From Christensenellales bacterium (lineage in GTDB: Bacteria; Bacillota; Clostridia; Christensenellales; UBA1242), in contig JBJFDL010000002.1 of the NCBI GenBank assembly GCA_051889995.1, positions 81,051 through 145,050 on the forward strand: a stretch of 64,000 nucleotides of DNA, in the 5' to 3' direction. Made by a program: the position numbers and the translations under genes. Within the stretch, counting starts at the first letter, position 1. Each line of letters starts with the position of its first letter. The notes beneath the pieces were generated by a model that was not told the origin of the DNA, made no database searches, and was given only the letters and a program-made list of their open reading frames with translations. Positions 10,184 to 61,498 of this stretch are shown piece after piece.

Positions 10184-11276
10184 TCAATTTTGACAGTTAA
10201 TTAAATATGAAAGGACGAAGTCTTCTAATTCGCCATTCATAACAGCATCAACATCACTTGTTTCATAATTAGTTCTATGGTCTTTAACAAGAGTGTAGGG
10301 ACAAAAGATATAACTTCTTATTTGGTTTCCCCACTCTATTTTTTGTTGTTCACCAGATATTTCACTAATTTCATTTAAATGCTGTTGCTCCTTAATTAAC
10401 AATAACTTACTTTTTAAAATTTTTAAGCAAGTTTCTTTGTTCTGTATTTGGCTTCTTTCATTTTGACAACTTACAACTATGTTGGTTGGCAAATGTGTTA
10501 TTCGAACAGCACTTTCTGTTTTGTTTATATGTTGTCCACCTGCACCACTACTTCTAAATGTGTCTATTTTTAAATCTTGCGGATTTATATTAACCTCTTC
10601 ATCGTTGATAATTTCGGGAATAACTTCAACGCTAGCAAATGTTGTGTGCCTTCTTTTGTTTGAATCGAAGGGCGAAATTCTAACAAGTCTGTGAACGCCT
10701 TTTTCACTTTTCATTTTTCCATACGCATTTTCACCACTTATTGTGAATGAAAGGCTTTTATAACCGACATCTTCTTTTAAATAATCGTTAACAACAAGTT
10801 TTAAATTTTCTTTTTCACAATATCTTGTATACATTCTAAAAAGCATTTCTACAAAATCATAACTCTCCGTTCCACCTGCTCCCGAATGAAGCATAACCAA
10901 AGCGTTAAGATTATCGTATTTTTTGTTTAATAATGTATCTAAATATAAAGAATTTGTTTTTTCACACAACGAAGTTAATTCAGCACTGATTATGTTTTCA
11001 TATTCAAGTTTTTCTTCTTCTTGCAGACCATCTAGCATATTAATGTCATTTTTTATATTTTTAAATTGAACATCAATCTCTTTCAACAAATCTAACTCTT
11101 TTTGTTTTTTTGCTAATTCTTTGCTCACTTCAATCAATTTTTGAGAATTAGAATATATGCTATCTTCATTCAATTCATCCTTTAATTTTTCAACGTCTTT
11201 TTTATTGCCTTCAAAGACAGTTACTGATTGTTAAAATTTGTTTTTCTAATTCTTGCAACTTGTCTAAATTTAACAT
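10184..11276 (-). CDS. prfB: Peptide chain release factor 2 (needs a programmed +1 frameshift at 11213)
   Basis: SPF motif (RISPFDSNKRRHTTF) and GGQ ([23 protein letters not shown]). A 21-codon leader ORF MLNLDKLQELEKQILTISNCL from ATG 11276 ends at an in-frame TGA. The +1 frame continues into the main ORF. Confidence 0.92.
11211..11216 (-). promoter_or_regulatory. prfB +1 frameshift site CTT TGA
   Basis: Minus-strand CTT(11216-11214) TGA(11213-11211) followed by A. Frame arithmetic links ATG 11276 to the downstream ORF only through a +1 shift. Confidence 0.85.
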
Positions 11277-36548: not shown

Positions 36549-38384
36549 TTACTCTAAAATCGCTTTAATACGACGAACGCCCGCACTGCTTGCCTCTTCT
36601 TTTGTTATTTTAAATTTTCCAAGTTCACTAGTATTGCTTACATGAGGTCCTGTGCAAATTTCTTTTGAAACATCGCCAATTGTATAAACCGAAACGATTT
36701 CGGGATATCTTTCAATAAATTGATGTTCAGCCCCAACTTCAACAGCCTTTTGTTTTGGCATTTCTTCTTTCGTAACAACTAAACCTTGACTAATCCAATC
36801 ATTTACCAAATCTTCAACTTGTTTAATTTCCTCTTCTGTCAATTTATGGTCACAAGGAAAGTCAAAACGCAATCTTTCATTTGTAATATTTGAGCCCATT
36901 TGATGTGATTCTTTACCTAAAACATTTTTTAATGCAGCATTTAGTAGATGTGTTGCAGTATGATATTTTGTTGTCATTTCACCAGTGTTTGCAAGACCAC
37001 TTTTAAACTCACCTTCTTTAATTGCTTTTGATTTTTCTTGGTGTTCTTTAAAAGCATTTTTAAATCCTTCTTCATCAACAGTGAAATTAATTTCATTTGC
37101 TAATTCAATGGTTAATTCAAGAGGAAAGCCAAATGTATCATAAAGTCTAAAAGCCGTTTTACCATTTATTTCATCTTTTATGTCTTCACCATTTTGCTTT
37201 GCAAATTCTTTATGCCTTTTAATTCCGTTAATTACTTTATCAAATTCTTTCAAACCTTGTTCCAAAGTTTTGTTGAACTTTTCTGTTTCTTTTAATATTT
37301 CATTTAAAATATATTCTTCATTTTGTTTTAAGCGAGGATAAGCTTCGTCGTAAATTTTTTCAATAAAAATTTTAGCGCAATTAATTAAATCTTCACTCTT
37401 CAAATTTAAACTTTTTGCATATCTAATTGCTCTGCGTAGTAATCTTCTTAAAATGTATCCTGCCCCCAAATTCGATGGAAGAAGACTGTTTTCATCGCCT
37501 ATTAACATAACAGCTGTTCTAATGTGGTCAGCAATTATTCTCATTGCTTTTGTCGCTTTTTCATTTTCTTCATATTTTTGTGAACTTGCAGTTTCAAGAT
37601 ATTTTATTACATCGTAAAACAAGTCAGTTTTATAAACATCATTTAATCCATTCAAAAACATCAAACATCTTTCAAAGCCAAAGCCCGTGTCAACATTTTT
37701 GTTGTCTAGAGGCAAATAACCATCTTCAGCTCTTTTATATTGCATATACACGTCATTACCAATTTCAACATATCTTCCGCAATCACATTCAATATCACAA
37801 TCTTTTGAGCATTTTTCTTCTCTAATTGGATAGAACCACTCATTATCTGGTCCACAAGGAGTGTCAACAGTTCCTTCTAACTCCCAGAAATTATTTTCTT
37901 TTCCGTTCGGCTTTTTACCTAAATAATAGATATTTTCTTCTTTTATTCCTAAATTTTTAAGATAGTTTGCTGTTTCAGTATCTTTTGGGGCATGTTCATT
38001 TCCAGCAAAAACGCTTGAACATATTTTATCTTTATCAAGTCCAAAAACCTCTGTTAACAATTCTACTGTCCAAGCAGTTTTTTCTTTTTTAAAATAATCA
38101 CCTAAACTCCAGTTTCCCATCATCTCAAAGAATGTGCAGTGAGAACTATCGCCTACTTCATCAATATCTACAGTTCTAACACACCCTTGAACATTACATA
38201 GCCTTGTTCCACTGGGATGTTTTTTACCTAATAAATAAGGCATTAAAGGTTGCATTCCTGCAACATTAAACATAACCCCAGTTGTGCCATCACCTATTAA
38301 AGAAACAGCACCAATGTTTACGTGTCCTTTTCCTTCATAAAATTTTATCCACTTATCTCTTAATTCTTTTGATGTAATTTTCAT
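36549..38384 (-). CDS. alaS: Alanine--tRNA ligase, short form (catalytic plus editing domains, no C-Ala domain)
   Basis: FNVAGMQP, HCTFFEMMGNWSLGDYFK, DTGFGFERC. Editing HTATHLLNAAL and CTGPHV. Ends ...GVRRIKAILE at 611 aa. Confidence 0.85.
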   Translation of the reverse strand: MKITSKELRDKWIKFYEGKGHVNIGAVSLIGDGTTGVMFNVAGMQPLMPYLLGKKHPSGTRLCNVQGCVRTVDIDEVGDSSHCTFFEMMGNWSLGDYFKKEKTAWTVELLTEVFGLDKDKICSSVFAGNEHAPKDTETANYLKNLGIKEENIYYLGKKPNGKENNFWELEGTVDTPCGPDNEWFYPIREEKCSKDCDIECDCGRYVEIGNDVYMQYKRAEDGYLPLDNKNVDTGFGFERCLMFLNGLNDVYKTDLFYDVIKYLETASSQKYEENEKATKAMRIIADHIRTAVMLIGDENSLLPSNLGAGYILRRLLRRAIRYAKSLNLKSEDLINCAKIFIEKIYDEAYPRLKQNEEYILNEILKETEKFNKTLEQGLKEFDKVINGIKRHKEFAKQNGEDIKDEINGKTAFRLYDTFGFPLELTIELANEINFTVDEEGFKNAFKEHQEKSKAIKEGEFKSGLANTGEMTTKYHTATHLLNAALKNVLGKESHQMGSNITNERLRFDFPCDHKLTEEEIKQVEDLVNDWISQGLVVTKEEMPKQKAVEVGAEHQFIERYPEIVSVYTIGDVSKEICTGPHVSNTSELGKFKITKEEASSAGVRRIKAILE

Positions 38385-38393
38385 TTTTTTCTC

Positions 38394-38975
38394 CTAACTA
38401 TTTGTTTCATCTAGATATGTTGCTTGTAAGTCTGCAAGATGGAATAAAAATGCCACAGGATATTTATAAAACGCACTACTTAGCGCATAACTTCCTCCCA
38501 ACACACGAGTATCATATCCACCCATATGCCAATTTATTGCCATAGCTTCTTCTCTTGTTAATTTCATAAAACCAGAAATCATATATACTGATTTTTCACC
38601 ATGCCCATAAGGCAAAAGTTCATCGACTGTGTAATATGGAACTTGAACCCATGCGCCATCTACTTTTGTGTTACGCATTTCTTCTTTATAGAAATCTACT
38701 TTACAAATATCATGCAACAATGCAATTATTGCAATGCTTTCGTCACTAATTTTTTCTGAATAATTTTCGCCATATTCATTAACGACTATTCGTTTAAATC
38801 TTCTAAATGTATTTAAAGAATGTTCAACCAATCCACCCCTATGACAAGAATGGAATTTTGAACTTGCTGGTGCAGTAAAAAAATCGCTGTTCTCTAAATA
38901 ATTAAGCAAATTTTCTGCGCCTTCTCTTTTTATGTTATCTTTAAAAATTTTAACAAATTCTTCTTTTGTATCCAT
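38394..38975 (-). CDS. HD-domain phosphohydrolase
   Basis: FHSCHRGGLVEHSLN and ALLHDICK (the H...HD signature). Stops (TAG) 9 nt before the alaS start. Confidence 0.75.
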   Translation of the reverse strand: MDTKEEFVKIFKDNIKREGAENLLNYLENSDFFTAPASSKFHSCHRGGLVEHSLNTFRRFKRIVVNEYGENYSEKISDESIAIIALLHDICKVDFYKEEMRNTKVDGAWVQVPYYTVDELLPYGHGEKSVYMISGFMKLTREEAMAINWHMGGYDTRVLGGSYALSSAFYKYPVAFLFHLADLQATYLDETNS

Positions 38976-38984
38976 AAAAATCTC

Positions 38985-39569
38985 CTAATTATAAAAATCT
39001 ATTCTGGCATTGAGCAACTTATAATATTTTATTGCCTCTTTTCTTAATTTGGAACGTTCAAAAAATATATTTTCTGTTGTTCTCCAAACGAACACCCATG
39101 CAATTATTAAAATCATTTCAGAAAACAAACTAAATTTCTCGACTATTTTAATTAATGCATATAACCCTAACGCTAAAACGCTTAAAATCATAAGATATAT
39201 GCATTCAACTTTATTGCTATATAGTCTATCATTTATATCGCTTACTTTTTTTTCGAAATAATTTCTGTATGCCAATTTAATCATACTTTTATCTTCACGA
39301 GTAAATTCTTTCGTGTTATTAATTTTTATATTCAAATGTTTTTCAAGTTTTATGTTGTCAGTGTTTTCGTTAACAAATCTTGCAAAATCACTAGTGATTA
39401 TTGTGTCTTCCCCCTCACTCAATTTTGACACAAGGTCATCTTTATTTTCGGCTTTTACATAAATTAAGGCTTCATCATTTTCATTAATAATTTCGCCGTT
39501 TTCAAATTCTATTTGTTGAAATTCATTTTTTAACTCTTTTAACATCTTTATATTTTTAAACATAAACAC
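38985..39569 (-). CDS. Hypothetical membrane protein
   Basis: 194 aa. Soluble acidic N-half, two C-terminal TM segments. No family recognised. Confidence 0.5.
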   Translation of the reverse strand: MFMFKNIKMLKELKNEFQQIEFENGEIINENDEALIYVKAENKDDLVSKLSEGEDTIITSDFARFVNENTDNIKLEKHLNIKINNTKEFTREDKSMIKLAYRNYFEKKVSDINDRLYSNKVECIYLMILSVLALGLYALIKIVEKFSLFSEMILIIAWVFVWRTTENIFFERSKLRKEAIKYYKLLNARIDFYN

Positions 39570-52625: not shown

Positions 52626-52850
52626 TAAAGTTAATACAATTAAAGCACCTACACCAAATATTAATAAGTGTAAGTGTTTTTTATTTAAGTTTTAATATAT
52701 AATCAAAAATAATTTTTTACGTAGTTTATAATTAATACTTTTATTTATGTTATATTAATTCTTTAAAATTTGAATTGTTGAAAAATATAACTGATTTAAA
52801 TTTAACATTCTAAAAAATTTATGTTCTAATATTAAATTGTTTAGATTGAA

Positions 52851-52884
52851 TAAAAAGAACATATTTTAAAATATGTTCTAAAAA
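52851..52884 (-). terminator. Intrinsic terminator closing the 59043-52954 operon
   Basis: Perfect palindrome AGAACATATTTTAAAATATGTTCT (52856-52879) with flanking A and T runs. Confidence 0.65.
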
Positions 52885-52953: not shown

Positions 52954-55002
52954 TTAATAAATATCTTTTACATCAAGTGGTAAATCATCATAAGAAGAAT
53001 AAGCGTTCACTTGAAAAATAGAATCTTCATAACCTATTGCGCTATTTAATGAATAGTTAAACGCAAGCACTATAGTAGCATTTCTAACATAACTATTGTT
53101 AATTGAAGACTGTGTATAATATGTTACTGGGCTAAAAATATATTCAAACAAACCAAAATTTGCAACATTAGTTGATAAGTATGCCGAAATGGTTCCAACA
53201 CAAGAATTTCCAGCATAATTTAAAGCGACATCTTTAATGTTAGAATAACTGTTTGAAACACTCCCAAAATTATTGTAAGAACAAATGCCACCAACCAACA
53301 AGGCATTGCTTGTTTTAACATTAAAATTCCCACTAAAACCACATTTATCAATAACAGCTAATGGAGAATATAAATAAGCACAAATCCCTGCAACAAAACA
53401 TTCTGTTTCTCCACTAACATTAAATTCACTTTCACAAAGTGAGTTTATTATTTTAGGACTATATATTACATTGTTAATATTGGCATACATATTAGCGTAT
53501 GTTATTCCACCAATATAGCATCCACTTAAACTGTTTGCTACAATATTCCCTTCAAATTTTGAATGGTTAATATTAGAATAGTTAATTGATGTTACTCCTC
53601 CTGCATAAACAATTGCAGACTTTGATTCAATTTCAATATTCGCACTGTTGATTGAATTTTTTATATCGCCAAAATTAAAAGTAGTAATTCCACCAACTAA
53701 AATTTCCAATTTGACTTCATCTTCTTCTGTTAAACTATTAACAGATAGTTTTCCTGAATTTACACAATCTTTAATTTCGCCATAATTTTCAATTACAAAC
53801 GCTGATATTGTTGGATTCCATTTTTCATTTGTTGATTGCGTAATATTTGCTTTATTTAATGAGTTATTAATTGCTCCTTTATTAATTCTAACAAATGCAC
53901 TCGAATCAACAGTTTCTAAATTTATTTCACCAATAACTTTTGAATTTACTATCTCACCATTATTAATTTTTGAGTAAGGAGAAAAATAAACATCTTTTGA
54001 AGAGTTATTCTTTATGTTTGCCGTAATGTTAATTTCACAATTTTTAATTTTTCCATTGTTTTCAAGCGCTATTATTGAAAGATTTTGTTCATTATTAACA
54101 ATATTAATTTCTTTTTCTATTATAACATTAAATTTAACATCTTCAATTTTGCCATTGTTCTCTTTTACTAAAAATGAATAATCTTCACCTACATCTTCTT
54201 CAATATTCACATTAATTATGCAATTTTTAAAATAACCTTTAAGATTTTCAATTAATGCTTTATTTTTTTGCTTGTTGAATGTTATTGTATGTCCATTTCC
54301 ATCAATACTACATTTATTTTTATTTGTATATATTTCTTCATTAAAAACCAAATCATCACAAAGTTTACTTTTTAAATTTTTGTTTATTGCATTAACAAAT
54401 TGAGTCTCATTATTAATTTTTAATGGATATAAATTTGTTCCTAACCCAAATATATTGCCAATCACTATTAAAACAACGCCAATAAATAAAAATCCACTTA
54501 AAACAATGCTTGATGTTAAAATTAATTTTTTCCTAAATTCATAAGACATTTTCTTCTTGGGAAGTAAAATTTCTGCCCTATTTGCAACTATGATTTCATC
54601 ACGCAGTGTATAAATTTTTTTTATATTATTAATGATTTCTTCATTTTTAAATAAGAGTTTATATTTCTTTTTTAGTTCTTTTCGCCTATCTAGAATGGCA
54701 AGCATTTCAATAGGATAAATTGTTTTATTGACATAAAAGCGTAAACTTCTTTGTGCATAATGTTTAAATTTTTGTTGCAATTCAAAAGGTTCTTCAATTT
54801 TTGTAAATTCGTTAAATTTTGCAAGTTTTTCTTCATATTCTTTTATAATGCTTCTGCTTTTAAAAAGATAACAAACAGAAAGGATTGGAAAACGACCAAA
54901 GGAAATATTTAAATTTTCATCACTAAAAAGACTAGCCTTAAATTTAATAAGGTTATCATCTTTTATAGCTTGAAAAATATTTTTATAATCTACTTTTTCC
55001 AT
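52954..55002 (-). CDS. Single-pass membrane protein with cytoplasmic N-domain and extracellular GLUG-like repeat domain
   Basis: TM LILTSSIVLSGFLFIGVVLIVIGNIF at about aa 160-185. Repeats include LVGGITTFNFGDIKNS, YAGGVTSINYSNINHS, YIGGITYANMYANINN, FVAGICAYLYSP, LVGGICSYNNFGSVSNS. Confidence 0.55.
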   Translation of the reverse strand: MEKVDYKNIFQAIKDDNLIKFKASLFSDENLNISFGRFPILSVCYLFKSRSIIKEYEEKLAKFNEFTKIEEPFELQQKFKHYAQRSLRFYVNKTIYPIEMLAILDRRKELKKKYKLLFKNEEIINNIKKIYTLRDEIIVANRAEILLPKKKMSYEFRKKLILTSSIVLSGFLFIGVVLIVIGNIFGLGTNLYPLKINNETQFVNAINKNLKSKLCDDLVFNEEIYTNKNKCSIDGNGHTITFNKQKNKALIENLKGYFKNCIINVNIEEDVGEDYSFLVKENNGKIEDVKFNVIIEKEINIVNNEQNLSIIALENNGKIKNCEINITANIKNNSSKDVYFSPYSKINNGEIVNSKVIGEINLETVDSSAFVRINKGAINNSLNKANITQSTNEKWNPTISAFVIENYGEIKDCVNSGKLSVNSLTEEDEVKLEILVGGITTFNFGDIKNSINSANIEIESKSAIVYAGGVTSINYSNINHSKFEGNIVANSLSGCYIGGITYANMYANINNVIYSPKIINSLCESEFNVSGETECFVAGICAYLYSPLAVIDKCGFSGNFNVKTSNALLVGGICSYNNFGSVSNSYSNIKDVALNYAGNSCVGTISAYLSTNVANFGLFEYIFSPVTYYTQSSINNSYVRNATIVLAFNYSLNSAIGYEDSIFQVNAYSSYDDLPLDVKDIY

Positions 55003-55007
55003 ATTGT

Positions 55008-55721
55008 TTATTTTTTAATTTTTACTTTCCTTTCTTTTGCCCATTTATCTAAAACTTCAAACAAGTATGCTTCGTTAACATCTTGATTTTGCACGACAGT
55101 GTTAATGAAATCTTTACTAATCTTATATTGATATGCTAAATCATTAATTGCTTTCCCTTGATTTTCAAGTTCGGAAAGCATTATTTTGTGGTCTTTTTTA
55201 ATTTCTTCTAAAGTTTTTGCATTTTCTATAACACTTCCTGCAACTTCTTTGTTAATAAACTCACCAACTCCTTGCAAATTTTTACTGTAAGTGTCCATAC
55301 TTTTTTGCAAATCTTTAACAGAATAAGAATTTTCTTTTGCTTCAATTAAATTTCCAATTTTTTGAATTTGTGCCTCAACTTTTCCCTCTAAATTATTCAT
55401 ATTGATAATTTTTTTCTCAACTTCATTAAAACTATTTAAAAGTTTATCAATTTCATTTGAATATTTATTTGATGCAATTAAAAATTGGTCGACTTTTTGT
55501 GTTAATTGATTTGATTTTTCTGCTTGATTGGCCAGCAAAGAATATATGGAGGACATTTTATCTTTAACTTCACCAGAAAGGGCGATATTTAATTTATCAA
55601 CATCTTCTTTTACTAAAAAATATGTTCCAGTAAATTCTTTTAAATTTTCTTGAAGTGGTATTAAAAGATTACGATAATCAATAAATGCTGTAATTAATTC
55701 TTTTAATTGTTCGTTTTCCAT
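55008..55721 (-). CDS. All-helical / coiled-coil protein, function unknown
   Basis: 237 aa with heptad-like Lys/Glu/Asn-rich sequence. AGGGGA RBS inside the end of the helicase gene. 19-nt overlap with it. Confidence 0.55.
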   Translation of the reverse strand: MENEQLKELITAFIDYRNLLIPLQENLKEFTGTYFLVKEDVDKLNIALSGEVKDKMSSIYSLLANQAEKSNQLTQKVDQFLIASNKYSNEIDKLLNSFNEVEKKIINMNNLEGKVEAQIQKIGNLIEAKENSYSVKDLQKSMDTYSKNLQGVGEFINKEVAGSVIENAKTLEEIKKDHKIMLSELENQGKAINDLAYQYKISKDFINTVVQNQDVNEAYLFEVLDKWAKERKVKIKK

Positions 55722-58153
55722 TTTTTATTCCCCTTTATTTTTTTCAAATTTTCTCTATTAATTTTAATGATTTCCTTTTGTGTTTCTAATTCGCCTTTAA
55801 CCAAATCAATAATTAATCGACAAACTTCTGGATTGTCAATAAAATCATTATAATAACTTACAACACTCGCATCAAGTTTTTCGCTTTTGTATTGCATATT
55901 TTCCAAAAATTCTAATAGTTTTTGGTCATTAGAGATTAAAAATTGTTGTCTAGCTTCTTCAAATAAGCCCGCTTGCCAAAATTTTATTCCTGCTTCTCTT
56001 GGTTTTTGTTTGAAAACATATTCTTTATAGATTTCAATTCTCGCTAATTGTTCGTTTAAAATTTGTTCATCTTGAAGTTTTTCTGCATAGAATTTTGCAT
56101 TTTCAAATTGTCCTAGTTTAATAAATTCATAAATTCTATCTATTATTTCATCTTGCTCTAATTCAACTTTGCTTATAATTTTTGTAAATTCTTCAAAAGT
56201 TTTTTCACCATTTAATATTTCGAAATTACGTTTAAAGAAATTATCAAAAACTTTCACATTTTCATTTTCAAAGACGAATAAGTTGTGCTTTGCTCTAGAT
56301 AATCCAACATAAAACAAATTAAAATAATATCTGTAAACAGAATTTTCATCAGCTTTTTTATGATTTAATTTTAAATTTTCTAGATATTTCCATTTTCCAC
56401 TATTATTAGAAATCAAATTCCATAGCAAAACTGTATCTCTTTCTAACCCTTTTACTTCACTGATGGTCAAAACTTCTTGTTTTTTAAAGATTTTTTTAAC
56501 TTCTTCTTTTTGTTCATTCGAATTGACTAATATTGTAAAGTTTTCAAATTTTTGATTTTTTAATTTATCAATAAAATGTCTATCGAAAGTGCATACAAGT
56601 TTTGTGAAATCATCTTCATCTACGCTTTCATTTTTAATAACAAAATTATGAAGTCCAAATTGTTCAATATTTATTTGTCCTAATTCATCTAATAAATCAA
56701 CTATTTTTTTATTGTTACGATAATTCGCTTTTAATGTTTTAACGTTTAATAAATCTTTCTCATACATTAATCGTTTAAGATAAGCAAAATTAAAATATGA
56801 AGGATTAATCATCTGCAAAGCATCGCCAACACAAAACATTTTAATACTTATTTTCTTTAATAAATATAAATTAATTTGAGTAAAATCTTGCACTTCATCA
56901 ATTATTGATAAACTATATTTAGGAATTTTATTTACCATAAAAAGTAATTTTCTAGAAATAATATTATTGTCAATTGCTGATTTTGATAGATATTTTTCAT
57001 ATTCTTTAGCTAATAGATAAATTATTTCGCATTCCTCTCTTGTAAAACTGTTTTCACGCAAAGAAATGTATTTTTCAAGTGACAAAATATCGTTTGGATT
57101 ATCTTCATCACACCAACCAAAAATCATACCATAAATTTCTTTATATAAAAGAGCATTTGAAATTTTACTAATTTTTTTCATTCTGTTAAGTAAATTATGA
57201 TTGCTGATGTTTGGCAAAAAATCTTTTTCAAATGTTTCACTGGTTGTTATTTCTATGTCTTCGTTCGTTATTTTTTTATACAAATCTTCAAGTAATAAAT
57301 AATCAACTTTGCTGTCTAGATATTCGATAATTGATTTAATTTGAGAAATAATACTTTTTTCATTATTATCCACCAAAGTTAAACCTAATCTTTTTTCAAT
57401 GGCTTTTTTGTGTTCCTTATCAAGATAAACAATTTTATTGTTTTCATAATCATTAACAAAATCAATTAAACTTTTCTTATAAAGTTCAATTTTGTTTTTT
57501 GTATCTAAAAGTAATGCCCTAGAAAATGTTGTGTATAAAATTTTTCCACCATAATTTTTAGATGCAACAAAAATTATTTTGCTTGTGCATATATTTGTTT
57601 TACCACTTCCAGCAACACCTTGAACAAGCACATTTTCATTTTCTATATTCACTATTTCTTGCTGTTCTTTATTTAACAAAGGCAAATTGACGTATTTTGC
57701 AAAACTTACATAATATAATTTTTTTAGATTATCTTCACTAATATTTTTAGAATCACAAGTGGCAACTATATTAAAACTATTTATGTTTTTTTGATAAGAA
57801 ATTATTCTGCTATCGTGATTTTTGATTTTTTTTCCATCAAAATTTGATGCAAAAAAAACTATATCAAAAGGCGAAATATTTTTAATATTTTGAAAACCAA
57901 ATTTAACATAAAAACAAAATTTTTTATCAAAAGTTTGTATCTTAAAAGAATTGCATTTTGTTCTTAAAAACATATTTTTAAAATCATTAAGTTTTGTTTG
58001 CAAAGCTTCGCCAATTTTTAGGATAAAATCGTCAATAGAAATAAGTTTTTTTGTTTGCATCAAAAACCTTTCAACCTTAAAAATGCTAGATTGAGATGAA
58101 AGATATTGTTTGTTTAAGTTAACAGATAATGTTTGAGATGCAATATTTTCCAT
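55703..58153 (-). CDS. SF1 UvrD/HelD-like helicase-family ATPase with unknown N-domain and TPR-like C-tail
   Basis: VLVQGVAGSGKTNI (Walker A), IIDEVQDF (motif II), CVGDALQ, LKANYRNN, VKGLERDTVLL, FYVGLSRAKHNLFVFE (motif VI). Confidence 0.8.
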   Translation of the reverse strand: MENIASQTLSVNLNKQYLSSQSSIFKVERFLMQTKKLISIDDFILKIGEALQTKLNDFKNMFLRTKCNSFKIQTFDKKFCFYVKFGFQNIKNISPFDIVFFASNFDGKKIKNHDSRIISYQKNINSFNIVATCDSKNISEDNLKKLYYVSFAKYVNLPLLNKEQQEIVNIENENVLVQGVAGSGKTNICTSKIIFVASKNYGGKILYTTFSRALLLDTKNKIELYKKSLIDFVNDYENNKIVYLDKEHKKAIEKRLGLTLVDNNEKSIISQIKSIIEYLDSKVDYLLLEDLYKKITNEDIEITTSETFEKDFLPNISNHNLLNRMKKISKISNALLYKEIYGMIFGWCDEDNPNDILSLEKYISLRENSFTREECEIIYLLAKEYEKYLSKSAIDNNIISRKLLFMVNKIPKYSLSIIDEVQDFTQINLYLLKKISIKMFCVGDALQMINPSYFNFAYLKRLMYEKDLLNVKTLKANYRNNKKIVDLLDELGQINIEQFGLHNFVIKNESVDEDDFTKLVCTFDRHFIDKLKNQKFENFTILVNSNEQKEEVKKIFKKQEVLTISEVKGLERDTVLLWNLISNNSGKWKYLENLKLNHKKADENSVYRYYFNLFYVGLSRAKHNLFVFENENVKVFDNFFKRNFEILNGEKTFEEFTKIISKVELEQDEIIDRIYEFIKLGQFENAKFYAEKLQDEQILNEQLARIEIYKEYVFKQKPREAGIKFWQAGLFEEARQQFLISNDQKLLEFLENMQYKSEKLDASVVSYYNDFIDNPEVCRLIIDLVKGELETQKEIIKINRENLKKIKGNKKWKTNN

Positions 58154-58161
58154 TTGCTTTC

Positions 58162-59043
58162 CTATAAATTATTTAACAGAATTTTTCCATTTAAAACGTC
58201 ATTTAAATTAAAACTTTCTTCACCAACTTTAAATTGACCTTTATTTAAATTGATAGAAAATTTATTTTTATTTTCTTCAATATTTTTTCTTTGAAGTTTT
58301 ATTAATTCTTCATTTTGTTTAATATAAAACTTTTCGACTTTTTCTCTTATTAATTTAAGTGCTTCTTCCTTATTTTGATATTGCGAACGATTTTTTTGAA
58401 CTTTAACAGTTATTTGAGTTGGCAAATGTTTTACCACAACTGCACTTAAAGTTCGATTGATATGTTGACCACCAGCACCACTCGCTTTTGTAGTTTTTAT
58501 GCTTAAAAGTTTTTCATCAAAAGTTTCTAGTTTGGTTTTTTCTTCAAGTGCAACTATTTTTGCAATTTCATATTCTTCTTTGTTTAATATTTGATATATA
58601 CCAATATAATTTTTTACATTGGTAAAGACATTTATTCCCGAAGCAATAATTTCAACCTTACTATCAAAACTTTTTATTCCCTTGGTGCATTCTTCACCCA
58701 AAACTAATAAAATCATATCCATTAACATTGATAAAATATTAGAAGATTTGGCACTAATTTCAATTTTAACATTTTGAAATAATTTCTCTTCATTTTTAAA
58801 GAGTTCATTTCGTAATTCTATTGCACATCTTTTTGCTCCATCAAGTTTATCTTCTTCAATAAAAAATTTAAAATCATTATATAAATTTACAATATTTTTT
58901 AAACTTTTTTGAACATTAAGATAATGCATAAATTGTTTATTATCGCTTACAATTTCAACGTATTCTAATAATTTATTGGCTTCATTATATTCAATTACTT
59001 TTGCATCAAGCAATTCAATAATTTCAACATCAAGTAATTCCAT
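58162..59043 (-). CDS. RF1-derived class-I release factor paralogue: GGQ domain intact, decoding region degenerate
   Basis: [43 protein letters not shown] is close to the prfB GGQ region. RF1-like N-terminal helices. No PxT or SPF. About 60 aa shorter than RF1. Confidence 0.8.
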
Positions 59044-59048
59044 ATTTA

Positions 59049-59077
59049 ATTATAACAAATTTATATCTCATTTGCAA
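59049..59077 (-). promoter_or_regulatory. Sigma-A-type promoter placed for a leaderless RF-like transcript
   Basis: TTGCAA (59077-59072), 17 nt, TATAAT (59054-59049), 5 nt, ATG (59043). No SD. Confidence 0.5.
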
Positions 59078-59640: not shown

Positions 59641-60366
59641 ATGACACAAACAATTTTAAAAAATTTATTTGTTGAAAGCAAGAATATTAATAAATATCCT
59701 TTTAATTTACCTATTTTCAAACACGATTTGAATATAAATTTTTCTAAGCCAGTAACTTTTTTGGTAGGAGAAAATGGCTCGGGTAAAAGTACACTACTTG
59801 AAAATCTTGCAAATTGTCTTGATTTTAATGTGTTAGGTGGAAATAAAAATCATATTTTAAATTCTAGTGAAAATCTAGATAATTTAGAGATTTCTAATTA
59901 TATGAAACTTAGTTTCTTTTATAGGATTTCTAAAGGTTTTTTCTTTAGAGCTGAAAGTTTTTTTGAGTTTGCGCAATATATTGATTATCTAGCAAAAGAT
60001 GATAGATCAATTTACTTTGGATATGGTGGAAAATCTTTACAAAAAAGATCACATGGGGAATCTTTTATTGAATTGTTTGGAAAATTTAAAGATGGAATTT
60101 TTATTTTAGACGAACCAGAAGCAGCTTTATCACCGGAAAGACAATTGACGCTTATGGCTATGATAGAAGAAAAAATTAAAAAATATAATTGTCAATTTAT
60201 AATTGCCACACATTCGCCGATATTAATAACTTTACCTAGTGCTGAAATCTTCGAAATTGATGAAAATGGTGAAATTTGCAAAAAAAGATATGATCAAACT
60301 AAACAATTTGATTGGTATAAACGGTTTATTTCTAATCCTCAAAAATATCTAAATTATTTATTGTAG
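59641..60366 (+). CDS. Stand-alone ABC/AAA_21-type ATPase
   Basis: LVGENGSGKSTLLE (Walker A), ILDEPEAALSP (Walker B), IATHSP (H-loop). 241 aa. Confidence 0.75.
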   Translation: MTQTILKNLFVESKNINKYPFNLPIFKHDLNINFSKPVTFLVGENGSGKSTLLENLANCLDFNVLGGNKNHILNSSENLDNLEISNYMKLSFFYRISKGFFFRAESFFEFAQYIDYLAKDDRSIYFGYGGKSLQKRSHGESFIELFGKFKDGIFILDEPEAALSPERQLTLMAMIEEKIKKYNCQFIIATHSPILITLPSAEIFEIDENGEICKKRYDQTKQFDWYKRFISNPQKYLNYLL

Positions 60367-60378
60367 GATAATTAGAAT

Positions 60379-60741
60379 ATGTATTTCAATTTTAATGAAA
60401 ATGTTGACTTAGTTTATGGAAAGTATCGATCTACGATTATTAATGTTAAAAAAAAATCTATTTGGATGATTAATAATAAATTCTATAGAATTTTAAAACT
60501 GTTAAAAGATGGTAATTGTATTGAAAAAATTACCACAAACACTAAAATTATTATTGAAAAATTAAAAATATTAGAATCAAATTTTCTTGGTAAAATTTCT
60601 GAACAATATATAAACAATAATAAAAACAAATACGATTTATGGAATATAAATATGGTTTGGTTACCATTAACTAATTCTTGCAACTGTTTGTGCTGTTTTG
60701 TTTGCATTAATTATTTTTTTGTGTTACGATGCAAAAGTTGA
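60379..60741 (+). pseudogene. 5' fragment of a radical SAM/SPASM-type peptide maturase (RRE-like N-domain), truncated at the repeat array
   Basis: The N-terminal about 100 aa resemble a PqqD/RRE-like domain (YRILKLLKDGNCIEKI). LPLTNSCNCLCCFVC is a garbled CxxxCxxC site. The ORF then ends where the 130-bp repeats begin. Confidence 0.5.
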
Positions 60742-61198
60742 TACGAGTGACAAACAAATTAAAAAACAGTCCATTAGCGACTGTTTTAGTTTGGCAGGCG
60801 AAGTAGGATGTTTGCACGAACCCACTGGCTTGTCGTGGGAAAACGAAGTTTTAATGCGCAGCAAACGAGTCTACGAGCGACAAACAAATTAAAAAACAGT
60901 CTATTAGCGACTGTTTTAGTTTGGCAGGCGAAGTAGGATGTTTGCACGAACCCACCGACTTGTCGTGGGAAAACGAAGTTTTAATGCGCAGCATACGAGT
61001 CTACGAGCGACAAACAAATTAAAAAACAGTCCATTAGCGACTGTTTTAGTTTGGCAGGCGAAGTAGGATGTTTGCACGAACCCACCGACTTGTCGTGGGA
61101 AAACGAAGTTTTAATGCGCAGCATACGAGTCTACGAGCGACAAACAAATTAAAAAACAGTCCATTAGCGACTGTTTTAGTTTGGCAGGCGAAGTAGGA
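60741..61198. repeat. Tandem array, 3 full 130-bp units plus partial units, each with a pseudo-tRNA-Trp 3' fragment and a terminator hairpin
   Basis: Units start at 60749, 60879 and 61009, with a partial unit at 61139 running into the genuine tRNA. Only 3-4 mismatches between units. Each contains TGGCAGGCGAAGTAGGA (the tRNA 3' 17-mer) and AACAGTC-n7-GACTGTT. Confidence 0.9.
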
Positions 61199-61257
61199 CT
61201 CGAACCCACGACCAACGGTTTTGGAGACCGCGACTCTACCAACTGAGCTATTCGCCT
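61182..61257 (-). tRNA. tRNA-Trp (anticodon CCA), CCA encoded
   Basis: Reverse complement AGGCGAATAGCTCAGTTGGTAGAGTCGCGGTCTCCAAAACCGTTGGTCGTGGGTTCGAGTCCTACTTCGCCTGCCA folds as a cloverleaf with anticodon loop CTCCAAA. Confidence 0.92.
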
Positions 61258-61310
61258 ATATATCTATTAAGTTTTACATTGTGCTATTAACGTTCTTTCG
61301 TTTGGTAGAC
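61239..61310. repeat. 72-bp direct repeat, copy 1 (tRNA-Trp 5' 19 nt plus 53 nt of upstream leader)
   Basis: Identical to 61427-61498 except for one base (G/A at 61292 vs 61480). Confidence 0.9.
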
Positions 61311-61426
61311 CCAAGGTCTTCCTCTTGTTTTAATCTCGTCTTTGTCTTGCCATTCCAAATACTCGTTAAAAGCAAGAACTTCCGTTTCGCTTCTTCTCAC
61401 TCCCCTGTGAGCGCTCAACTCTAGTT

Positions 61427-61498
61427 CCAACTGAGCTATTCGCCTATATATCTATTAAGTTTTACATTGTGCTATTAACATTCTTTCGTTTGGTAGAC
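61427..61498. repeat. 72-bp direct repeat, copy 2 (orphan tRNA-Trp 5' fragment plus leader, promoter-proximal)
   Basis: Same 72-mer as 61239-61310. In minus sense it continues AGGCGAATAGCTCAGTTGG-AAC-TAGAGT, then diverges into a 116-nt insert. Confidence 0.9.

Follow-up and report, generated by a model that had tools for sequence, protein, structure and literature searches.

Why would a release-factor paralogue that appears unable to read stop codons be kept beside a helicase and a membrane protein? The question is raised by a cassette of four genes in a 64,000-nucleotide (nt) stretch of DNA from a Christensenellales bacterium (GCA_051889995.1, contig JBJFDL010000002.1, positions 81,051 to 145,050 of the forward strand), which we refer to at its full length as the window; positions given without a locus label refer to it. 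The four open reading frames (ORFs) are packed on the minus strand and encode a release factor (RF)-like protein of 293 residues (59043-58162), a superfamily 1 (SF1) ATPase/helicase of 816 residues (58153-55703), a coiled-coil protein of 237 residues, P3 (55721-55008), and a membrane protein of 682 residues, P4 (55002-52954). In 5' to 3' order, the ORFs are spaced by an 8-nt gap, a 19-nt overlap between the helicase stop and the P3 start, and a 5-nt gap. A preliminary description of this DNA had reported the four ORFs and their spacing, together with a promoter-like site and a terminator hairpin, and all of these were recovered.

Here, we describe the cassette as an ancient operon that is specific to Christensenellales-type Clostridia and maintained there by selection, a conclusion that is well supported by its recurrence across species. 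Its first protein is, with good support from the comparisons set out below, predicted to be an RF1-derived paralogue that keeps domain 1, the domain 2/4 shell and the catalytic domain and that lacks the codon readers. We tentatively suggest, at chances a little below even, that the cassette specifies a dedicated, membrane-associated module for ribosome rescue or quality control.

The RF-like protein beside the canonical release factors

The RF-like protein of the window carries a Pfam RF-1 domain at residues 175-258 (2.9e-22, 79 bits); PCRF gave no match in this Pfam scan. On family models it scores 86.6 bits for prfA (TIGR00019/NF001859; cut-off 423.25), 75 bits for prfB, 69 bits for prfH (TIGR03072; cut-off 166.65) and 33 bits for ArfB (NF006718; cut-off 100), the ArfB match being confined to the GGQ loop. 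Seven orthologues reach 145-291 bits on the RF1 models, all below the cut-offs of 400-423; they align to the prfA model over its full length (positions 3-343) and score higher as RF1 than as RF2. Domains 1, 2 and 4 can be recognised, the catalytic domain with its GGQ is intact, and the GGQ loop context of RF1 is conserved in the relatives. The window protein and all aligned orthologues have the PxT/SPF tripeptide loop shortened by 3-12 residues and the GGxE at the tip of alpha5 deleted. All 70 family members examined have GGQ, and all 70 have the anticodon-loop deletion. These deletions, together with the retained GGQ, bear out the preliminary description, which had taken the protein for an RF paralogue that keeps GGQ without decoding elements. 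Thus, the protein appears catalytically intact but codon-blind, and under selection for catalysis.

The family is large. An exhaustive HMMER search yielded more than 100 clusters (at 50% identity) of RF-like proteins of 290-345 residues that match over their full length at 26-38% identity; relatives of the window protein from the same species are more than 90% identical to it, after which identity drops to about 30%. A 2019 survey of bacterial release-factor paralogues lists RF1, RF2, ArfB and PrfH only, so that the extra GGQ families comprised ArfB and PrfH (PMC6514570). The RF-like family is a third, sizeable extra bacterial GGQ family, derived from RF1 and with domain 1 kept.

The preliminary description had also considered that the RF-like gene might be the only prfA orthologue and decode normally. 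A canonical prfB (RF2) gene lies outside the cassette in the window itself (10184-11276, minus strand; 430.8 bits, cut-off 370) and has the +1 frameshift site (ATG ... TGT CTT TGA A), at which a short upstream ORF ends (CTT TGA A). TAG ends 10 of the 50 long ORFs of the window, among them the RF-like gene, and a further in-frame stop nearly always follows within 0-29 codons. Because TAG is a working stop codon, RF1 activity is required, and a protein without PxT cannot supply it. The presence of prfB and the use of TAG together therefore mark the RF-like gene as an extra paralogue, a codon-blind factor beside the canonical release factors, of which prfA would be one. The sole canonical prfA context that we saw adjoins Sua5-type genes. 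An apparent case of TAG read-through at 36549-39569 (minus strand) was rejected as chance: the three same-frame ORFs prove to be unrelated genes, for a DUF2207-like membrane protein, an HD-domain protein and a 611-residue AlaRS-like protein, with TAG plus 9 nt between each.

Conservation, expression signals and surroundings of the cassette

A scan with the helicase family, taking one genome per species, found it in at least 176 species genomes. Most of these carry the labels Clostridia, Christensenella, Christensenellaceae, Christensenellales, Catabacter or Ca. Stercoripulliclostridium, and the samples were of gut, rumen and digester origin. Gene order was counted in the best 80 loci, 75 of which include upstream sequence. 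The helicase gene (80/80), the P3 gene (79/80) and the P4 gene (72/80) occur in one fixed order, with absences at contig ends, and the RF-like gene stands directly upstream in 69 of the 75 loci (92%). Start and stop codons of the cassette genes abut or overlap, in a translationally coupled arrangement, in the window as in the relatives' loci. Co-conservation in related genomes, which the preliminary description had left to be checked, is therefore evident from the recurring order and from the spread of the helicase family.

The cassette occurs in at least four different flanking contexts, and flanks are shared within the closest clade only (14 of 58 loci have gpsA upstream and 15 of 55 have a HAD gene downstream). 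Because the same cassette is found between differing flanks, the unit itself is what is kept. No remnants of gpsA, relA, rubrerythrin or tmk genes were found in the 597-nt upstream spacer or in the whole window, the context of which is rearranged relative to its nearest relatives. Among 12 syntenic species, mean pairwise identity is 63% for the helicase, 67% for P3, 70% for GpsA, 57% for RelA and 40% for the RF-like protein. Thus, conservation of the helicase and P3 is on a par with that of RelA and GpsA. A co-divergence test of helicase against RelA identities in the same 12 species was uninformative: every correlation was about zero, that of GpsA with RelA (r = 0.2) included, and the clade is star-like, so that we use the mean identities alone.

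The RF-like gene is the first cistron, and a promoter-like site precedes it at 59049-59077 (minus strand), with TTGCAA as the -35 element, a 17-nt spacer and a TG-extended -10 element, TATAAT, that ends 5 nt ahead of the ATG. A lone site of this kind is not significant in AT-rich DNA, the window having 62 promoter-like matches where 54.7 are expected. The support comes from orthologous RF-like genes, which share the layout: of the 23 with a secure start, 16 have TGnTAnnnT ending 6-7 nt before the ATG, as against 1.1% of random positions, and 14 of these 16 also have TTG at -35. The consensus promoter of the preliminary description (TTGCAA-17-TATAAT) is thus present and backed by comparison. 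An extended -10 element 5-7 nt before the RF-like ATG was seen in the window and in loci L007-L022, L046, L051, L062, L066 and L080. With the -10 element so close, the mRNA of the first cistron is predicted to be leaderless, and probably is, no Shine-Dalgarno sequence being possible for it. At the other end of the cassette, a terminator-like structure (52848-52879, minus strand) consists of a hairpin at 52856-52879, with a 10-bp AT-rich stem and a 4-nt loop, followed by a U-run, and sits between the convergent P4 and HAD genes. A scan for consensus terminators missed this hairpin, whose stem has fewer than three G-C pairs. Its folding energy of -11.1 kcal/mol (z = -4.0; none of 200 shuffles equally stable) and the T-run nevertheless confirm the palindromic terminator that had been proposed.

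The preliminary description placed the cassette in an accessory island bounded by an AT-rich gap on one side and by tRNA-Trp with attachment (att)-like repeats on the other. These landmarks are present. The gap downstream of the last cassette gene has 20% GC. At 60742-61198 lies a 130-nt tandem repeat of 3.5 copies, 98% identical, each unit of which begins with the 3' end of tRNA-Trp (TTTGGCAGGCGAAGTAGGA), and at 61239-61498 a 72-nt direct repeat (99%) includes the initial 19 nt of tRNA-Trp together with the region upstream of it. The repeats resemble att remnants left by successive integrations at tRNA-Trp, and all lie within about 700 nt. The island reading itself did not hold. The GC content of the cassette, 23-28%, is that of the background in a uniformly AT-rich window, all four att-like copies of the tRNA-Trp 3' end fall within 60790-61200 and do not bracket the cassette, and the helicase has no phage match and only partial plasmid matches, at 29-30% identity and to orphan genes. 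That the cassette is not a mobile island is therefore well supported, and conservation at the level of RelA and GpsA also speaks against an island. Pfam scans of nine flanking ORFs at 46.4-63.5 kb revealed no integrase.

Between the cassette and the repeats, on the plus strand (59641-60741), lie a gene for a small AAA_21/AAA_15 ATPase, weakly PtuA-like, and then an ORF of 120 residues with the Cys-rich end SCNCLCCFVC. This ORF ends exactly where the tandem repeat starts and may be a truncated radical-SAM-type gene.

The helicase, P3 and P4

The second protein matches UvrD-helicase (4.7e-10), AAA_19 and UvrD_C_2 in Pfam. Motifs I-VI are readable, and GSGKT, DEVQD, GDALQ, NYRN, KGLERD and VGLSRAK are invariant in 60 sequences. 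There are more than 850 homologues, the best 120 at 51-57% identity. The AlphaFold model (predicted local distance difference test, pLDDT, 82; predicted template-modelling score, pTM, 0.80) is made up of an alpha/beta N-terminal domain (residues 1-150), a 1A domain with a helical insert of ~190 residues, a 2A domain, and, at the C terminus, a domain of helical repeats (634-814). The two end domains are peculiar to this family and conserved throughout it. Foldseek matched the model to UvrD, PcrA, IGHMBP2, Upf1, Sen1, Dna2 and HelD alike, at 10-14% identity and template-modelling (TM) scores of 0.24-0.36, and sequence searches gave weak matches to PcrA, UvrD and helicase IV only.

The preliminary description had called this protein a HelD/UvrD-like SF1 ATPase, and the two halves of that name fared differently. 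The complete SF1 motif set and the UvrD and AAA_19 matches stand. The HelD structures 6wvk, 8qn8 and 6yys are matched at E about 1e-9 and TM scores of 0.24-0.30, no better than UvrD, Upf1 and IGHMBP2, with 6wvk at rank 10 (E 1.7e-9). Moreover, the long coiled coil that HelD inserts into the secondary channel has no counterpart in the model, in which residues 1-150 form mixed strands and short helices with H40-52/H55-65 as the longest hairpin. Thus, motifs and model together predict an SF1 (UvrD-type) ATPase with a full set of motor motifs that does not appear specifically HelD-like. A search for an RF-docking domain, in which helicases from RF-lacking and RF-bearing loci were compared, gave no domain-specific difference.

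Two plasmids carry orphan UvrD-domain proteins of about 950-970 residues (L087 4272-7184, Shigella flexneri pINV; L088 4161-7022, a Cetobacterium megaplasmid) that share 29-30% identity with the motor domains only and have no P3, P4 or RF neighbours. The Shigella gene adjoins virK and capU, and its function is apparently unannotated.

Nearly all of the 74 full-length P3 orthologues have 236-244 residues. In 40 aligned orthologues, 14 residues are invariant and the basic tail at the C terminus, W-A-x-x-R-K-V-K-x-K-K, is conserved. Profile matches, which are to coiled coils only, make the protein all-helical, in line with the preliminary description and without pointing to a family. Attempts at a specific identity, by profile searches against PDB sequences and by per-member Pfam scans, returned compositional coiled-coil matches only.

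P4 is modelled by AlphaFold (pLDDT 86) as a helical N-terminal domain, a transmembrane helix at about 154-184 and a long beta-helix. The N-terminal domain has an invariant G-R-F-P-x-L-S and weak ankyrin matches in the PDB (Foldseek); the best PDB matches of P4 are the beta-helices of IgA1 proteases, weak at E about 1e-2. The N terminus is probably cytoplasmic because a positively charged stretch precedes the transmembrane helix. A single-pass membrane protein with an ankyrin-like domain inside and a GLUG-type right-handed beta-helix outside is well supported as a model-based prediction. This largely upholds the single-pass GLUG-repeat protein of the preliminary description, given the transmembrane helix, the modelled beta-helix and Pfam GLUG (PF07581) matches in 5 of 38 orthologues (best 2e-11); the window copy itself has no Pfam match, GLUG included, at E <= 0.1. 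The helicase and membrane-protein families gave no specific family in Pfam, NCBIfam, PADLOC or PHROGs. In relatives, a fifth gene for a protein of 73-91 residues with two transmembrane helices (P5; L004 13255-13530, L006 13142-13408, L090 10256-10477) follows P4 in 49 of 62 loci, overlapping or abutting the P4 stop; it is absent from the window.

Possible function and relation to known systems

The rescue reading that we tentatively prefer would work as follows. P4 and P3, with P5 in relatives, would tether the helicase at the membrane, where it would spend ATP on remodelling a jammed translation complex, by pulling on the mRNA, by splitting the ribosome or by clearing it away. The RF paralogue, being codon-blind, would then enter an A site independently of any stop codon and hydrolyse the peptidyl-tRNA. 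Binding to the ribosome, assembly into a complex, action at the membrane and the substrate of the helicase are all inferred here. A fuller version is doubtful when all of its claims are taken jointly: a membrane-tethered bacterial ribosome quality-control machine in which stalled ribosomes, possibly engaged in secretion, would be cleared or split by the SF1 helicase and the nascent chain freed by the RF1-derived hydrolase, on a scaffold of coiled coil and ankyrin/GLUG protein. Such a machine would be convergent with RQT plus Vms1/ANKZF1 and a third GGQ rescue class after ArfB and PrfH. Rescue of stalled transcription-translation complexes was one of two hypotheses in the preliminary description; its translation half fits better than defence, and its RNA polymerase (RNAP)-recycling half gained no specific support.

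Several observations weigh against ribosome rescue. The helicase belongs to the UvrD type, and the solved structures closest to it are those of DNA helicases, although Foldseek cannot separate DNA from RNA SF1 enzymes. The RF-like copy of the window is the most degenerate of all (86 bits, as against 145-291 in relatives), and the protein is fast-evolving. Among the loci examined, a canonical prfA of a cassette-bearing genome was not directly seen, the RF1 match P0020 being from a different assembly. The four proteins are tied to the ribosome, and to each other, by inference, and it is not obvious what a large extracellular beta-helix would do in ribosome rescue. Finally, the RF-like gene is not nearby in five loci (L025, L026, L027, L032 and L036), in which the core of helicase, P3 and P4 persists, and in L089 (7246-9869) P3 and P4, which match their family profiles at E 8e-81 and 3e-84, stand alone. 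Lysine-biosynthesis genes and mnmE/smpB flank this pair, and neither a helicase nor an RF-like gene lies within 8 kb of it. The loci thus form a hierarchy of P3-P4, then the helicase-P3-P4 core, then the full cassette with the RF gene as a frequent addition.

Since the core occurs without the RF gene and P3-P4 without either partner, the RF gene may be an add-on to a differently tasked system. In that case, helicase, P3 and P4 with the small membrane protein would form an envelope or nucleic-acid-handling complex, for instance in repair, uptake, segregation or the relay of a surface signal, and the RF would be an independent backup factor that shares the promoter. The closeness of the UvrD-type core in sequence to DNA helicases would suit such a complex, as would the lack of any domain-specific change in the helicases of RF-lacking loci. 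We consider it rather unlikely, given that the RF-like gene is adjacent in 92% of loci with reading frames that abut or overlap, and that a conserved promoter directly on its start makes it the first cistron. In L039, moreover, an RF1-like paralogue (160 bits, below cut-off) lies on the opposite strand directly past P4 (13276-14385, minus strand); there, the RF gene was relocated yet is still beside the cassette, and the linkage survived the rearrangement. An ATPase that strips stalled RNAP in the manner of HelD, with the RF paralogue freeing the coupled ribosome, would address a recognised rescue problem, that of blocked transcription-translation complexes (PMC13584721), and the helical insert of ~190 residues in 1A could act as a clamp arm. 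This combination is nevertheless the least probable that we weighed, and very unlikely: HelD structures are among the significant Foldseek matches and E. coli helicase IV is weakly matched by 3 of 12 helicase orthologues, but HelD ranks no better than UvrD, Upf1, IGHMBP2 or Sen1, the mixed alpha/beta N-terminal domain with its short helical hairpin replaces the secondary-channel coiled coil, and the membrane partners are left unexplained.

Defence or abortive infection was the other hypothesis of the preliminary description. The beta-helix or the helicase would sense infection, and the GGQ protein would release nascent chains prematurely so that translation stops. The RF-like and P4 proteins are fast-evolving, the cassette flanks differ between lineages, phage RF-1-domain families exist, and the divergent AAA_21/PtuA-like ATPase gene lies upstream, in this window only. 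PADLOC gave weak partial matches of the helicase to GajB models (best 2e-12) and a marginal match of P3 to DruC (6e-4) but no system-level match, in line with the absence of a known system call that the preliminary description had expected. No OLD or TOPRIM gene, and hence no GajA partner, is adjacent in the annotated contexts, and neither a nuclease nor another usual effector partner accompanies the cassette. Defence systems known so far tend to be patchy in distribution and to spread horizontally. This family is apparently confined to one order-level lineage, in one gene order and without a close phage or plasmid relative; its helicase and P3 are conserved across species like the housekeeping proteins RelA and GpsA, GC is at background, and the unit is not bracketed by att sites. 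We therefore regard defence as improbable, although a defence system fixed in the lineage would be compatible with the data.

The ribosome-rescue reading has precedents among GGQ proteins and, for the helicase, in HrpA. PrfH and ArfB are GGQ paralogues that release peptides without a stop codon (PMC6514570, PMC12829566), and ArfB is reported to be absent from Firmicutes (PMC6514570), an absence that leaves a niche. The closest likeness is to PrfH (RFH), also a class-I RF paralogue with GGQ kept and a degenerate codon-recognition domain without PxT or SPF, and also in an operon with a nucleic-acid enzyme (PMC6514570, PMC12829566). PrfH lacks domain 1, which the RF-like family keeps, and its partner is the RtcB ligase, whereas the RF-like protein is partnered by an SF1 helicase and membrane proteins; in the annotated contexts, no RtcB was seen and the neighbour of the RF-like gene is the SF1 helicase. 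PrfH is sporadic and horizontally spread, whereas the RF-like family is restricted to a single Clostridia lineage, within which it is strongly conserved. PrfH releases peptides from stalled ribosomes without a stop codon (PMC6514570, PMC12829566), an activity that the RF-like protein would share. RF1 (PrfA) is the best-scoring family over the whole length and shares the four-domain layout and the GGQ loop context. The RF-like protein differs from it in the shortened PxT loop, the deleted GGxE, scores of 86-291 bits as against 400-423, and a place beside a helicase. ArfB/ICT1 is likewise a GGQ protein, and ArfB hydrolyses peptidyl-tRNA without reading a codon, but it consists of a bare GGQ domain and a basic tail that probes the empty mRNA channel. 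Domains 1, 2 and 4 are all retained in the RF-like protein, which ends without a tail of this kind; in the cassette, a basic tail is found on a separate protein, P3.

In Vms1, which works together with an ATPase at a membrane, an RF-type domain and ankyrin repeats are joined in one protein (in part PMC6514570). The likeness of the cassette to HrpA, or to RQT/Slh1 with Vms1/ANKZF1, is a functional analogy only: an ATP-driven helicase clears stalled ribosomes, as HrpA does in rescuing collided ribosomes in E. coli (PMC11419001), and a hydrolase with a release-factor fold frees the chain. None of these is homologous to the cassette proteins: HrpA and Slh1 belong to SF2, and the RF fold of Vms1 is the archaeo-eukaryotic one. 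The parts encoded by the cassette are, moreover, separate polypeptides. With HelD, UvrD, PcrA and GajB, the helicase shares the 1A/2A motor and all SF1 motifs, as seen in weak Pfam, NCBIfam, PADLOC and Foldseek matches; it differs from them in its low identity to solved structures (10-14%, TM scores no higher than 0.36) and in a cassette without a HelD arm or a GajA partner. Full-text searches and the release-factor survey yielded no published description of the RF-like family or of the cassette operon, and no named system matched, as the preliminary description, which knew of no system of such composition, had anticipated.

If the link between the RF and the helicase is functional, the cassette would give a testable entry to the handling of stalled ribosomes in the abundant and poorly studied Christensenellales-type Clostridia of the gut. 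It would also allow one to ask how partner proteins can retarget a release factor, and whether bacteria evolved rescue by helicase plus hydrolase independently. Should the link prove to be purely regulatory, the analysis still places four or five uncharacterised protein families in a defined genomic setting and documents a leaderless promoter layout that is conserved.

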